Shown: positions 20,017-24,034 of the stretch, piece by piece | Layout of the letters: each line of letters opens with the position of its first letter | Numbering within the stretch: the stretch's first letter is position 1 | NCBI GenBank assembly: GCA_045586105.1 | Contig: JAZMZS010000211.1 | Span: 1-54,983 of the forward strand | DNA: 54,983 bases | Reading direction: 5' to 3' | From: Eubacteriales bacterium | GTDB taxonomy: Bacteria; Bacillota; Clostridia; Oscillospirales; CAG-272 | The notes under the pieces: model-generated | What the model saw: the letters and a program-made list of their open reading frames with translations, nothing else | The model's database searches: none | Told to the model about the DNA's origin: nothing | Translations under genes and position numbers: made by a program

Positions 20017-20045
20017 TTGATTTTTTTGAAAATATAGGATATAAT
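20017..20045 (+). promoter_or_regulatory. promoter of the 20103 gene
   Basis: TTGATT (20017-20022), 17 nt, TATAAT (20040-20045). Confidence 0.55.
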
Positions 20046-20102: not shown

Positions 20103-20360
20103 ATGAAAAAGCTCTACATTCACGATCTTAATATTGACGATCTGATAAAGACGGTTGAAGCTTGCTCCGGAGAGGTCTACCTCGAGACGGAGGAGGGCGA
20201 CTCGCTCAATCTGAAATCAACCTTTTGCAGAATCATCGGACTTGCAAAGATACTCGAGGGAGCAAAGATAACGAAGGCGTATATCCGCTGCACCGATATT
20301 GACGACGAAACTCTCTTTTTCAGATTGAACCTCTACCATGAGGTCCCCAAAACCAACTGA
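20103..20360 (+). CDS. small hypothetical protein (85 aa) with a weak HPr-like pattern
   Basis: Start at the second ATG (MKKLY...) about 10 nt after GAAAGGA. By eye, YIHDLNIDDLIKTV...SLNLKSTFCRIIGLAKILEGAKIT lines up with HPr GIHARPATVLVQTA...VNLKSIMGVMSLG..GAEIT. This is a weak resemblance only. Confidence 0.55.
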   Translation: MKKLYIHDLNIDDLIKTVEACSGEVYLETEEGDSLNLKSTFCRIIGLAKILEGAKITKAYIRCTDIDDETLFFRLNLYHEVPKTN

Positions 20361-20375
20361 CAGACAAGCGCTCTG

Positions 20376-20420
20376 CAGGATGTAAAAAACACGTGTTTTT
20401 TACATCCTGTTTTTATTTTT
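20376..20420 (+). terminator. rho-independent terminator
   Basis: caggatgtaaaaaacac / gtgttttttacatcctg perfect 17-bp stem followed by a T-run. Confidence 0.85.
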
Positions 20421-20424
20421 CCTG

Positions 20425-20453
20425 TTTACAAATCGACACCTGTATTGTATAAT
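20425..20453 (+). promoter_or_regulatory. promoter of the RnfC-RnfD-like gene
   Basis: TTTACA (20425-20430), 17 nt, TATAAT (20448-20453) with an upstream TG. It lies inside the 5' end of the track ORF, so the true start is downstream. Confidence 0.6.
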
Positions 20454-20495
20454 AGTAAAAACGACCGATTCGGAATGCGAGGTGAAGCTCGGGAA

Positions 20496-23117
20496 ATGGG
20501 TTACGGATTAAAGCTCAAAAAGCCCTTTTATACAAAAAACACCGATATACACACAATAGAACATATTCCCGAGGTAGTTCTGTCCTTCGATCCCCGCCAC
20601 ACCCTTGCGGCGGCAGAAGGGGATCAAGTTCTTGCGGGTCAGCTGCTGGCTGATGCCCCTGCCGATCTTACTCCGGTCTACAGCAGTGTATCGGGAAGGA
20701 TCGCTTCTATAGACAAAAGAAACGGTATCGGATACATCAGGATCGAAAACGACAACGAATACAGCATAGCCGAGTCTCCCTTTGAAAAGAAAAAGCTTTC
20801 GGCTATGACCGATGACGAGATACTCGAGCGTATCCGTCTGTGCGCTATACCCGAGTGGCAGCTCTTTTCCGACATAAAAGCAGTGCGGCGTCTTGTCATC
20901 AGCTGTCTTGATTCCGATATATATTCTTCAGACAGAAAATGCACTATCCGCCACAGAGCAAGAGAGCTTATCGGCGGTGCGAAGATATTATTGAAGCTGC
21001 TCGGACTTGACCTGTGTGAGATCGTGATCGAAAGGCGCAGCACCGAGCATATAAACCGCCTGCTCGAGTATATAGGAGAATCCTCGCTATTTGACATAAT
21101 CGAAGTAAACGGGAAATACCCTCTCGGAGAGGACAGCAGAGTGATCTCGCAGCTTCCCTCTTCAAGAAAGACCGAGGATGGCAGGACATGTGTGCTGAGT
21201 GCACATGCCGCAGCCGATATATACAGAGCCTTCTCTGATGGTATGCCTTGTATAAGCCGCATAATATCGATAGGCGGCTCTGCCCTCAGCTCGGGCGGAT
21301 GCTACCGCATTCCTCTCGGAACACCGATCGAATGTATAGCAGGCGAGCTTGCAAGACGTCCCGACGGCAGTATGCCTTCTGTCATTTTTGCCGAGAACGG
21401 AGCGATGAGCGGAACCGTCCGTGACATGAAGGAGGCATACACCGCACACAGCACTCACTCGCTCGTATTTATTGACGAGAGCTGTGCTTTTGTAAACACC
21501 TCATCCTGCATCGGCTGTGCAAAGTGCGACAGCGTATGTCCCGACGGCCTTATTCCCTCCGCATTTATAAGGAGCATGGATAAGGATAAGAAACACGCTC
21601 TGAGCATCAGCAGACTTGACAAATGCTCGGGATGCGGTACTTGCTCCTACGTTTGTCCCGCAAAGCTCCCGATACATGAAATGGCACGCGGAAACTCCGA
21701 TGTCCCTCCTCCTCATATGCTCCCTGTAAAGCAGAAGATCAAAAGCACACCTCTTCTTCGTTCTCCCGAGAGCGTGCGGACGATATCTCTCGATCTGATC
21801 CTTGCTCTCTGCGTGCTTGCGGGATGGGCAATATGCCGCTTCGGCATTATGGCGCTCGCGATCTGCGCAGTATCCGTAATGTCCGCTGTCGGCTCGGACA
21901 TTCTCTATACGCTTCTGACAAAGAGAAACGTGCGCTCCGTGCTTGATCTCAGCTCTGTTGTGTGCGGTATGCTGTGCGGACTTACCATGAGTATAAAAAC
22001 GCCGTTATACGTAGCGGCGGCTGCATCCTTCTTTGCGGTGATGATCGTCCGCGGAGCCTTCGGCGGAAGCGGAAAAAACATCATCCATAGTGCTTTTGCG
22101 GCACGGGTGGTCATCTCTCTGTTCTGGCATGACGGCTTTGTTTACGAAAGCGGCAGAAACTACACTCTGTTCGACCACCTTCTCGGAAACACCGAGGGGG
22201 CGCTCGGTGAGGTATCGTTTATACTTCTTTGCGCATGTGCGCTCTATCTCATATACAAGCGGGTAATATCCATACCCCCGATGCTTGCAACGCTCGCCGC
22301 CTTTACAGTAACAATGTTCATATGCGCTCCAGCATCGAACACCGCCGATTATGTAAAGATAACTCTGATAAGCACGGCTGTAATGCTTGTAAGCGTATTC
22401 TGCTCTGCCGAATACTCCTCTCTTCCCACGACACTGCCGGGAAGGATAGCGTACGGCGTGATCTGCGGATCCGTCTGTGCGGTCATAACCCGCTTCACAT
22501 CCTATGAGGGCGCGTATATAGCATCGGTAATTGCGAGCCTTATCACGGTGCCTCTGTTCAGCCGTATCGGCAGGATCAGGCATCAGCCGCTCACGGCAGA
22601 AGCACCCGACGCCCCTGCCGCTTCCGCTGCGGAGAAGAGCGGCGAGACGAATGAGTTTATCTCTCCGGACGAAAATGCCGCAGATGAAGCTGAGACTGTT
22701 TCTTGTGAGCCTCAGCCCGACGAAGAGACAGGCCTCCATGCCGAGCCCGGCACCGAAGCATCCGATTCTTCCCTCGATCCGCCTGCCTCCTCAGAGGAGG
22801 GGATCACAGCAGAGGAGGAGCAGGCACTCATACCCGTACATCAAGATGATGCTCCGGAGGAGGAGCCTTCCTCTATAGATGAGGATTCTGCCGCCAACGA
22901 GGATATCTCCGATGAAAGCGAACAGATCCCGACCGGAGAGGACAAAGAGGAATTTGACATCGATTCGGAAAAGCTCCTCGATGCCCTTTCTGCAGAGATA
23001 GGTCTCGACGATGACGATGACTCGGATGCGTCAAGAAGCGGGATACTTCCGTCCGCAGGCTCGGCAGATATCGATTCGGACGAGCTGTTCAGAAAGATAT
23101 ATAACGAAACCGAATAA
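20496..23117 (+). CDS. RnfC-like / RnfD-like fusion membrane protein with a long acidic C-terminal tail (degenerate cofactor sites)
   Basis: RnfC N-domain (VLAGQLLAD...VYSSVSGRI). Two 4Fe-4S motifs (CIGCAKCDSVCP, CSGCGTCSYVCP). RnfD-like polytopic domain (SPESVR..., DLSSVVCGMLCGL, FGGSGKNIIHSAFAAR, GALGEVS, FCSAEYSSLP). About 180 aa Asp/Glu/Ser-rich tail. Start ATG 20496 (MGYGLK) preferred; ATG 20475 is possible. Confidence 0.8.
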   Translation: MGYGLKLKKPFYTKNTDIHTIEHIPEVVLSFDPRHTLAAAEGDQVLAGQLLADAPADLTPVYSSVSGRIASIDKRNGIGYIRIENDNEYSIAESPFEKKKLSAMTDDEILERIRLCAIPEWQLFSDIKAVRRLVISCLDSDIYSSDRKCTIRHRARELIGGAKILLKLLGLDLCEIVIERRSTEHINRLLEYIGESSLFDIIEVNGKYPLGEDSRVISQLPSSRKTEDGRTCVLSAHAAADIYRAFSDGMPCISRIISIGGSALSSGGCYRIPLGTPIECIAGELARRPDGSMPSVIFAENGAMSGTVRDMKEAYTAHSTHSLVFIDESCAFVNTSSCIGCAKCDSVCPDGLIPSAFIRSMDKDKKHALSISRLDKCSGCGTCSYVCPAKLPIHEMARGNSDVPPPHMLPVKQKIKSTPLLRSPESVRTISLDLILALCVLAGWAICRFGIMALAICAVSVMSAVGSDILYTLLTKRNVRSVLDLSSVVCGMLCGLTMSIKTPLYVAAAASFFAVMIVRGAFGGSGKNIIHSAFAARVVISLFWHDGFVYESGRNYTLFDHLLGNTEGALGEVSFILLCACALYLIYKRVISIPPMLATLAAFTVTMFICAPASNTADYVKITLISTAVMLVSVFCSAEYSSLPTTLPGRIAYGVICGSVCAVITRFTSYEGAYIASVIASLITVPLFSRIGRIRHQPLTAEAPDAPAASAAEKSGETNEFISPDENAADEAETVSCEPQPDEETGLHAEPGTEASDSSLDPPASSEEGITAEEEQALIPVHQDDAPEEEPSSIDEDSAANEDISDESEQIPTGEDKEEFDIDSEKLLDALSAEIGLDDDDDSDASRSGILPSAGSADIDSDELFRKIYNETE

Positions 23118-23132
23118 CCTTTCCGACAGGTA

Positions 23133-23169
23133 TAAAAGGGTCTTTGCACATCCGCAAAGACCCTTTTCA
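23133..23169. terminator. bidirectional terminator between convergent genes
   Basis: aaagggtctttgc / gcaaagacccttt stem with A-run and T-run flanks. Confidence 0.8.
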
Positions 23170-23180
23170 ATTGCTCTATA

Positions 23181-23495
23181 TCAAATTCTCGACTGATACT
23201 CCTCAAAGAACTCAGCAACGCACATGGGGGTAACTGTATTTCTGACCATACAGTCATACATTTCCGATGCCCTGTCAAAAAGCGAGCTGACAGCGGGAAT
23301 TACAGCGCTCTCTCCCGACACCTCCCGATCGGAATGCTTGGTCACCAAAAGATCATACACATACCTTACATACAGCGTATGGTCTGTGTTCGGTCTCTTT
23401 ATCAATCTGTATGTCAGCAAAAAGCCTCCGCAGCTGACAGTTTTGGTTCTGAGACAGCGTGTAGTGGAATGGATCGTATTATTATCGGTTTTCAT
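23181..23495 (-). CDS. hypothetical protein (104 aa)
   Basis: Start ATG 23495 (MKTDNN...) lies 6 nt after GAGGTG. No family recognised. Confidence 0.5.
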   Translation of the reverse strand: MKTDNNTIHSTTRCLRTKTVSCGGFLLTYRLIKRPNTDHTLYVRYVYDLLVTKHSDREVSGESAVIPAVSSLFDRASEMYDCMVRNTVTPMCVAEFFEEYQSRI

Positions 23496-23779
23496 ATCTG
23501 CACCTCGAATTGAAAAAAGTGTTTTTGCTCCGCACATCGAAGCGGCTATTCATCATGGTCTCAAGAGAGGGGTAATTACCATTCTACCATAGCCTCCGAC
23601 ACAGGTATTATGTCAGTTTGATTGTGAAAATCACAGAGAATTTTGTCATAATTCCCTATTATTATCAGTTTTTTCTATCATAGGCATAATGCTCCCGCTA
23701 TTCCGTTAATTGTGTGATGCAATCCTGCGCAATATACTGTAAAATATATGATGAAAGACATACATGATAAGGAGGAAGA

Positions 23780-24034
23780 ATGAGATTCAAGAACGTAGCA
23801 GCATCATTTAATGCTATGCACCCATCCGCATATAGATTTCTCGTCTTTTGTCTGTCAATGATACTCGCATCGCTGTTTTTGTTTTGTCTGTATCTGGAAA
23901 AGGCAAACGCAAGCGTGCTATTTTCAATGTGGGTACAGAGGGTATACATATCAGAGACCGTGCTTAGCGCTGTGCTGATCAGCTTCGGAGGGGCGTTTTT
24001 GCTCGACGTTGCACACAAAAGAGATGCACGGTAA
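23780..24034 (+). CDS. small hypothetical membrane protein (84 aa, 2 hydrophobic helices)
   Basis: Strong RBS TAAGGAGGAAGA before the ATG. Followed by a terminator. Confidence 0.55.
   Translation: MRFKNVAASFNAMHPSAYRFLVFCLSMILASLFLFCLYLEKANASVLFSMWVQRVYISETVLSAVLISFGGAFLLDVAHKRDAR

Follow-up and report, generated by a model that had tools for sequence, protein, structure and literature searches.

Rnf and Nqr count as redox pumps that need all six subunits and rely on a chain of flavins. In the solved Rnf complex, the order of the electron carriers is flavin mononucleotide (FMN) of RnfG, FMN of RnfD, riboflavin, [4Fe-4S]C-2, [4Fe-4S]C-1, FMN of RnfC, and NAD+, and RnfD is composed of two inverted five-helix halves, ten helices in all (PMC9588780). 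NqrA of the Na+-NQR is without any redox cofactor (PMC12174285, a 2025 review of RNF/NQR), and a two-subunit Nqr/Rnf-like complex has been described in which an RnfD-like domain without flavinylation is joined to a redox module in the cytosol (Meheust et al. 2021; PMC10979944). Full-text searches of the literature and the 2025 review yielded no account of an RnfCD that is fused or devoid of flavin. The gene considered here joins an RnfC-like and an RnfD-like half in a single chain and lies on the forward strand of a stretch of 54,983 nucleotides (the window; contig JAZMZS010000211.1, positions 1 to 54,983, of assembly GCA_045586105.1) from an uncultured genus of gut Clostridia known only through metagenome-assembled genomes (MAGs), which are labelled Eubacteriales bacterium. 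In the alignments, both flavin sites of its product are physically deleted, and purifying selection maintains its RnfD core and its two [4Fe-4S] motifs; judged by its motifs and profile scores, the fusion is an Rnf derivative that does not pass the cofactor tests by which either parent family is defined.

The predicted product consists of a cytoplasmic RnfC-like head, a linker of ~25 aa, a 10-helix RnfD-like membrane domain, and an acidic disordered tail. The initial annotation, made from the sequence of the window, had proposed one open reading frame (ORF) joining the two halves, and this is borne out by the ORF itself, whose translation contains every peptide quoted at that stage (SPESVR, DLSSVVCGMLCGL, FGGSGKNIIHSAFAAR, GALGEVS, FCSAEYSSLP, IPEWQL, and SCLDSDI), and by the agreement of Pfam, AlphaFold2 (AF2), and Foldseek. 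Specifically, PF03116 (NQR2_RnfD_RnfE) matches aa 432-708 with 162.4 bits against a gathering score of 27.7 (residue numbers count from the TTG at 20445 or, where marked M18, from the ATG at 20496, which is residue 18). The N-terminal barrel-sandwich domain, also part of the initial annotation, is recovered by RnfC_N (PF13375) at aa 30-93, barely above the cut-off (27.3 bits versus 25.6), while Complex1_51K (PF01512) matches at 36.6 bits over profile positions 27-123 only and Fer4 dicluster families match the two-cluster region. The NCBIfam models place the protein below their curated cut-offs, both for rnfC (TIGR01945, 141 bits versus 245.95; NF003454, 126.7 versus 345) and for rnfD (TIGR01946, 108 versus 207.05). 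The AF2 model, computed from a 57-row alignment, confirms both folds with a mean predicted local distance difference test score (pLDDT) of 80 and values >90 across most of both domains. With Foldseek, the head retrieves RnfC (9eri_C, E 1e-24, TMt 0.74) and the membrane part RnfD (9eri_D and 7zc6_D, TMt 0.78-0.80, with 0.80 for 7zc6_D), and the next-best matches are NqrA and NqrB. Because RnfC is cytoplasmic and RnfD is made of two inverted five-helix halves, both termini of the RnfD domain should lie on the same cytoplasmic side, which, partly on our own reading, would make the fusion topologically natural and keep its tail in the cytoplasm.

The cofactor motifs of the RnfC half are deleted or remodelled, not merely degraded, in alignments with the genome's own RnfC and RnfD, the solved Rnf chains, and about 40 RnfC/RnfD sequences of the same bacterial family. 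The glycine loop, (S)GMGGA(T/G)FP, is gone by a clean 8-residue deletion between I135 and P136 (nt ~20850) in all 17 members of the fusion family, and NGAECEP, which is NCAECEP in most of the bacterial family, has become SCLDSDI, with a fusion-family consensus of NCLDxDPY. The initial annotation had described a replacement of GGAGFP by IPEWQL and of NGAECEP by SCLDSDI: the loss of both motifs stands, but the plain replacement of GGAGFP gives way to the deletion of the loop. Moreover, a 4-aa gap takes the place of HIG(A/V)P in the N-terminal barrel. The two CxxCxxCxxxCP motifs (CIGCAKCDSVCP and CSGCGTCSYVCP) are intact, as first noticed, and their eight cysteines are invariant in the 17 sequences. 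Three further cysteines, Cys133, Cys154, and Cys191, are invariant in the remnant of the FMN-NADH domain and, by alignment, would sit on three of the motifs that line the FMN pocket in proteins of the NuoF type. The idea that they form a new metal site in this vacated pocket was considered and is weakened, since Cys154 is already present in RnfC of the type-A rnf operons described below (NCAECEP) and Cys191 in one type-A sequence.

In the RnfD half, the (S/T)GAT motif that could not be found at first is missing because the whole outer loop with the (S/T)GATPL flavinylation site is deleted, between E568 and S569 (nt ~22149), over ~34 alignment columns; HMMER breaks its match to 7zc6_D in two, with chain residues 138-171, including Thr153, left out of the alignment. 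The other RnfD blocks are remodelled and still recognisable (NPA to HSA, DxSAVVTG to DLSSVVCG, FMATDY to FCSAEYS, and PEG to YEGAY), and the GxxGExS block is kept as GALGEVS. In the RnfD of C. tetanomorphum, Asn124 and Asp248 flank riboflavin, Asp248 is the proposed Na+ site, and Glu185 lies on the ion path (PMC9588780). Through the alignment to 7zc6_D, these residues map to His548 (Asn124), Glu656 (Asp248), and Glu589 (Glu185, kept), and H548, E589, and E656 are invariant in the fusion family.

Since the fusion has lost both ends of its segment of the electron wire, it would oxidise no NADH, take no electrons from RnfG, and be no ferredoxin:NAD+ oxidoreductase. The reading preferred here, which in this hedged form is given a slightly better than even chance, is that of a repurposed membrane Fe-S module that links the redox state of its clusters to a ligand in the membrane pocket. 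The surviving part would be the inner segment of the wire, with two clusters above the cytoplasmic half-channel of the RnfD domain, and the polar residues of this putative half-channel (Glu, Glu, and His) are kept or conservatively changed and invariant in the family. The occupant of the pocket to which the clusters respond could be a non-covalent flavin-like cofactor or a cation, and the outcome would be either a short electron wire leading from the Fe-S clusters to the membrane or a membrane device that is gated by redox state or senses it, while the acidic tail may recruit or release a cytoplasmic partner or act in an autoinhibitory manner. The proposal of the initial annotation, an Rnf-derived membrane Fe-S protein recruited to a different role, thus fares differently in its two parts: the sequence supports an Rnf-derived protein without flavin and nucleotide sites, and the new role is neither proven nor contradicted. 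A bolder version is fairly unlikely and is stated only tentatively: RnfC-RnfD would be an autonomous unit repeatedly cut from the Rnf pump to serve as a flavin-free, Fe-S-controlled device, e.g., a redox-gated cation pathway or a transmembrane redox sensor, with an output relayed by the tail and possibly a new metal or cluster site formed by C133, C154, and C191.

Several observations weigh against the preferred reading. Two residues of the pocket have changed with respect to canonical RnfD (N to H and D to E), so that binding of riboflavin would be no more than putative. No electron donor, acceptor, or partner gene is recognisable among the neighbours, namely ruvAB, an 85-aa ORF, a DUF6514 gene, and queT. 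Lastly, the fusion family has a very long branch and a higher rate of evolution than its housekeeping neighbours, which also fits a relaxed constraint on part of the protein.

The search of the same assembly for a canonical rnf operon, suggested by the initial annotation, located it on two other contigs. Contig C26 (G000:C26:1859-5917) carries rnfC with GGAGFP and NGAECEP, rnfD with SGATPL (354 bits as canonical RnfD), rnfG, and the start of rnfE, and rnfA opens contig C205 (G000:C205:102-659). Because this normal rnfCDGE(A) operon resides on other contigs, the fusion is an extra paralog beside the normal Rnf of the same genome, with 24% identity to the genome's own RnfC and 28% to its RnfD. 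As a side observation, the RnfG of this genome is unusually long (about 398 aa), apparently with two FMN-bind-like halves. The coexistence raises the alternative that the fusion replaces RnfC and RnfD in a complex with the canonical RnfG, E, A, and B, which would yield a dead or rerouted complex serving as a brake, or one to which the tail recruits another cytoplasmic exit. Canonical RnfD and fusion indeed occur once each in all five genomes of the genus, the RnfD fold and many of its signature blocks are retained, and the genome search for private RnfA/E partners returns only the two canonical RnfA/E genes, so that no extra copies are at hand for a separate complex. Still, in the solved complex (PMC9588780) nothing but FMN(RnfD) connects FMN(RnfG) with riboflavin, and it sits on the outer loop that the fusion has lost. 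In addition, the gene occupies a separate locus with its own promoter, its identity to the genome's own RnfC and RnfD is only 24-28%, and similar fusions elsewhere stand alone too; this alternative is regarded as unlikely.

The phylogenetic mapping that had been called for confines the fusion, among the species-representative genomes of the order, to the source genus (5/5 genomes), with no occurrence in about 115 other genera of the family or in 24 other families of the order. In a large protein collection, 16 close homologs of 772-935 aa are 44-64% identical to it, their entries carrying no protein names in the source databases, and among 1.84 billion representatives at 50% identity the family amounts to three full-length sequences and two fragments only. 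A wider spread within the family was considered and dropped, as open frames of about 800 aa proved to be ordinary rnfCDGEAB operons when the loci were read. An assembly or frameshift artefact joining adjacent rnfC and rnfD of a normal operon has only an a priori basis, namely that the two genes are neighbours in ordinary operons, sometimes in the same frame. It is already refuted by the recurrence of the same architecture in independent ENA, Logan, and NCBI assemblies, in more than 17 clusters, with the canonical operon separately present and no rnfG/E/A/B downstream at any locus. The absence of other rnf genes nearby, first noted in the window alone, extends to six syntenic loci, none of which has rnfG, E, A, or B beside the fusion, and no intact NADH/FMN or flavinylation motif was found in the chain.

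The selection regime bears on whether the gene is a slowly decaying pseudogene left over from a lost rnf operon. The ratio of nonsynonymous to synonymous substitution rates (dN/dS; Nei-Gojobori, close pair P0015 and P0016, dS 0.39) is 0.16 overall, with 0.195 in the RnfC-like part, 0.065 in the Fe-S domain, 0.138 in the RnfD-like part, and 0.18 in the tail, in a range spanned by neighbours from 0.018 (RuvB) to 0.22 (GHMP kinase). On the strength of these values, overall and in the Fe-S domain, the fusion appears not to be a pseudogene, nor, judging by its recurrence, an assembly artefact. A decaying relic would account for the lost catalytic motifs, for the very long stem branch (1.6-1.7 substitutions per site), and for an identity within the genus of 40-50% (45-52% to the L003 ortholog), compared with 70-90% for most neighbours. 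Against it stand uninterrupted frames of 770-935 aa in over 17 clusters and in all 5 genus genomes; dN/dS values of 0.07-0.2 in every domain; the invariant promoter, ribosome-binding site, and ATG; the confident AF2 model; and the evenness of conservation, the folded domains being 40-60% identical to the window protein throughout. Decay of this kind is therefore very improbable.

The tail, described at first as Asp/Glu/Ser-rich and probably disordered, agrees with that description in its charge (Table 1), in its composition of 57 Asp plus Glu versus 6 Lys plus Arg over 178 residues, and in the AF2 model, where residues 697-821 (M18) are predicted to be disordered (pLDDT <50). Its mean identity in the fusion family is 16%, two motifs excepted, and the two short helices predicted in the tail coincide with these motifs, the only conserved ones it has. 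No other ORF of the genome carries the DSxxLFxxLYxE motif in a genome ORF search. The tail is absent or much shorter in some family members, e.g., P0004 and P0005. These features touch on a further alternative, in which the protein has a redox-independent role: the RnfD-like domain would be a channel, transporter, or anchor, the Fe-S head would be structural, and the tail would be the business end, e.g., a protein tether. The two conserved helices and the invariant intramembrane Glu and His would suit such a role, and NqrA, also among the Foldseek matches, shows that the RnfC fold can persist without any cofactor (PMC12174285). However, the eight invariant cluster cysteines and the lowest dN/dS falling in the Fe-S domain (0.065) are unexpected for a structural relic, and a tail that is missing or much reduced in P0004 and P0005 is a poor candidate for the essential part, so that this explanation is considered quite unlikely.

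The gene also has the layout of an independent transcription unit (Table 1). The mechanically called ORF spans 20445..23117 (+) and begins at a TTG, which abuts the -10 box TATAAT (20448-20453) and thus lies 5' of the predicted transcript start. The real start is almost certainly the ATG at 20496, because the homologs start there (the aligned MG(Y/F) is the first residue pair of all 16, and MGYGLKLKK is the start peptide at M18), a ribosome-binding site lies 10 nt upstream, and the TTG at 20445 stands against the -10 box. The promoter proposed initially was recovered in the promoter scan, and its elements, TTTACAAA and GTATAAT, are unchanged across six species in an alignment of the upstream regions whose remaining sequence has diverged; promoter, ribosome-binding site, and ATG are all invariant in these six. 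Upstream, a strong terminator would isolate the unit from the preceding gene. Downstream, the hairpin that had been read as a bidirectional terminator is present with its A-tract and TTTT; the terminator scan did not list it, as its T-run of only 4 T is under the T-run rule of the scan, and it is likely shared with the convergent DUF6514 gene. Lying between the terminator and the hairpin, the fusion gene appears to be monocistronic.

Table 1. Coordinates of the predicted features of the RnfC-RnfD fusion gene and its product in the window.
Feature	Position	Strand	Basis and remarks
Strong terminator of the upstream 85-aa ORF	20375..20410	+	16-bp stem followed by a T-run
Sigma-70-type promoter, TTTACA-17-TATAAT	20425..20453	+	11/12 positions match in promoter scan
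Ribosome-binding site, GAGGTGA	20479..20485	+	10 nt before ATG 20496; conserved in six-species alignment
Coding sequence of the RnfC-RnfD fusion	20496..23117	+	873 aa plus stop; database copy P0002 also 873 aa
RnfC N-terminal barrel-sandwich hybrid domain	20532..20723	+	PF13375; AF2 pLDDT >95; canonical HIGAP stretch absent
Remnant of NuoF/RnfC FMN-NADH domain	20826..21179	+	PF01512 partial match plus alignments
Two-[4Fe-4S] ferredoxin-like domain, CIGCAKCDSVCP and CSGCGTCSYVCP	21486..21665	+	Fer4 families; invariant Cys; dN/dS 0.065
RnfD/NqrB-like polytopic membrane domain	21738..22568	+	PF03116; Foldseek; alignments
Acidic disordered C-terminal tail, 178 aa	22581..23114	+	aa 713-890; net charge -51
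Conserved tail helix 1, EFxIExADELLxxLSxEIGL	22965..22997	+	AF2 helix 824-834 (M18), pLDDT about 67
Conserved tail helix 2, DSxxLFxxLYxE	23076..23111	+	AF2 helix 861-872 (M18), pLDDT about 77
Hairpin, A-tract before and TTTT after	23133..23169		GGGTCTTTGC/GCAAAGACCC; 10-bp GC-rich stem, read directly in sequence

The gene order around the fusion is conserved as ruvA, ruvB, a variable insert, the 85-aa ORF, the fusion, DUF6514 and/or a small two-helix membrane ORF, queT, DUF1653, and an AI-2E permease. The 85-aa ORF (20103-20357, +) has a promoter-like site of its own at 20017-20045 and its terminator at 20375-20410. It matches no Pfam family, is 84-88% identical in five species, far above the conservation of the fusion, with a dN/dS of 0.036, and is absent from that position in G048/L004. 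Just 3' of the fusion lie the DUF6514 gene (23181-23537, -) and the small two-helix membrane ORF (23780-24034, +), and a DUF6514-like ORF (23.6 bits) with a small membrane ORF also flanks P0059 (L079:4244-5095), an unrelated fusion. The two were considered as functional partners of the fusion, but the link is weak, as DUF6514 occurs in 36/61 genomes of the order regardless of the fusion; the shared flank may be due to chance.

Two types of rnf operon occur in the bacterial family, type A in most genera and type B in the source genus and some others. Some genomes (e.g., G073) hold both rnfCDGEAB types (L062-L070), and the source genus holds the rarer type B and the fusion only. The fusion is nearer to type A (28-32% identity, versus 24% to the genome's own type B) and has several signatures in common with it (NC..., GGAKILLK.LGL, IGES, and KYP.G.E). 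It is plausible that a type-A rnfCD pair lost rnfGEAB, fused, and diverged, yet this history goes no further than plausible because the fusion clade does not fall within type A in the trees: in every tree the clade stands on its own stem, with the branch length given above.

Other fusions of the two subunits are found in metagenomes. P0028 is a stand-alone fusion inside type A with a degraded glycine loop and an intact RnfD threonine. P0029 and P0030 are stand-alone fusions with a degraded glycine loop and a deleted RnfD flavinylation loop, P0029 with DCLDSEPY. P0059 and P0087 have an acidic linker between the RnfC and RnfD halves, and P0059 stands alone and has a degraded glycine loop. P0105 is a further metagenomic RnfC-RnfD fusion. 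The canonical motifs are present in P0064 (784 aa), an RnfC-RnfD fusion with GGAGFP and NGAECEP intact, and in P0067 (913 aa), an apparent RnfC-RnfD-RnfG triple fusion that ends in an FMN-bind-like domain. P0029 (L077:977-4786) is flanked by an S1-domain gene and, immediately downstream, by ruvA-ruvB-zapA, and the RuvB of its distant lineage is only 66% identical to that of the window. The fusion of the window lies just downstream of ruvA-ruvB; this proximity is either a very old synteny or a coincidence. In the free tree, the fusions are polyphyletic, a result whose reading is limited by the long branches, and in the approximately unbiased (AU) test a clade of the window's family with P0029 and P0030 is not rejected (p 0.54; constrained tree 2.2 log-likelihood units better), with the same limit from long branches. 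Taken by their motifs and tree positions, stand-alone C-D modules with degraded flavin motifs have arisen or persisted in several lineages.

Variation in the cofactor motifs extends to two other gene clusters. In Feifaniaceae and Clostridia MAGs, L008:5923-10479 (also L006 and L007) is a complete rnfC'-D-G-E-A-B operon in which RnfC' (395-405 aa) is without the GGAGFP loop (DRFG--FSAA) and HIGAP and has SCVEDQPY for NGAECEP, while RnfD, G, E, A, and B look ordinary. The operon may encode a whole Rnf-type complex whose RnfC binds neither NADH nor FMN, and the link of the fusion to this Feifaniaceae-type RnfC' may be a product of long-branch attraction. In an Oscillospiraceae MAG from goat rectum, L009:5923-10848 is an Rnf-like cluster without rnfG or rnfB. 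It comprises an RnfC' truncated to 347 aa, which lacks the barrel and the glycine loop and has DAVDDEPY, and an RnfD' (453 aa) with no SGAT motif and its own acidic, Glu-rich C-terminal tail, followed by an RnfE-like protein, an RnfA-like protein, and a 464-aa membrane-anchored protein.

The significance of the locus lies in the persistence of two Rnf subunits as one chain, with the flavin sites excised and the clusters and an intramembrane polar pocket under selection, beside an intact pump. The similar stand-alone fusions with degraded flavin motifs in several unrelated lineages suggest that the RnfC-RnfD pair is useful without the rest of the pump. If that is so, the fusion would offer a minimal natural setting in which to ask what function the RnfD half-channel and the RnfC clusters have on their own, and how new membrane redox or sensing devices arise from respiratory complexes. 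In annotation practice, such genes will figure as Rnf subunits when the metabolism of gut Clostridia is reconstructed, although their products would be unable to carry out the Rnf reaction.

Among known systems, the subunits RnfC and RnfD of Rnf (solved for A. woodii, 9eri, C. tetanomorphum, 7zc6, and A. vinelandii, 8ahx) have the same folds as the fusion; the adjacent rnfC-rnfD gene order equals its domain order, both have two CxxCxxCxxxCP clusters, and the RnfD blocks FGGxGxN, GxxGExS, the acidic residue in FMATD(E)Y, and P/YEG are common to both. Unlike Rnf, the fusion is one polypeptide with a 178-aa acidic tail, its FMN/NADH glycine loop is deleted and NGAECEP replaced, the outer RnfD loop is missing together with its flavinylated Thr (Thr153 in 7zc6), His and Glu stand in place of Asn124 and Asp248, no rnfG/E/A/B is found in cis, and the NCBIfam cut-offs are not reached. 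The two-subunit Nqr/Rnf-like complex resembles the fusion in having an RnfD/NqrB-like domain without the flavinylation threonine and a proposed role outside the full pump. However, it carries a C-terminal NAD-binding PF00175 domain and has an adjacent RnfG-like flavinylated partner, whereas the fusion has an N-terminal RnfC-like Fe-S head, i.e., the reversed order, and Pfam finds no match to PF00175 or FMN_bind in the fusion or its neighbours. The other metagenomic fusions (P0028, P0029/P0030, P0059/P0087, and P0105) are equally C-then-D in a single chain, but they occupy different places in the tree and have none of the tail motifs of the window's family. Lastly, NqrA is, like the head of the fusion, an RnfC homolog minus the FMN/NADH site in a membrane complex (Foldseek TMt 0.57-0.73); it differs in being a separate subunit within a six-subunit pump and in having lost the Fe-S clusters too, whereas the clusters are the best-conserved part of the fusion.

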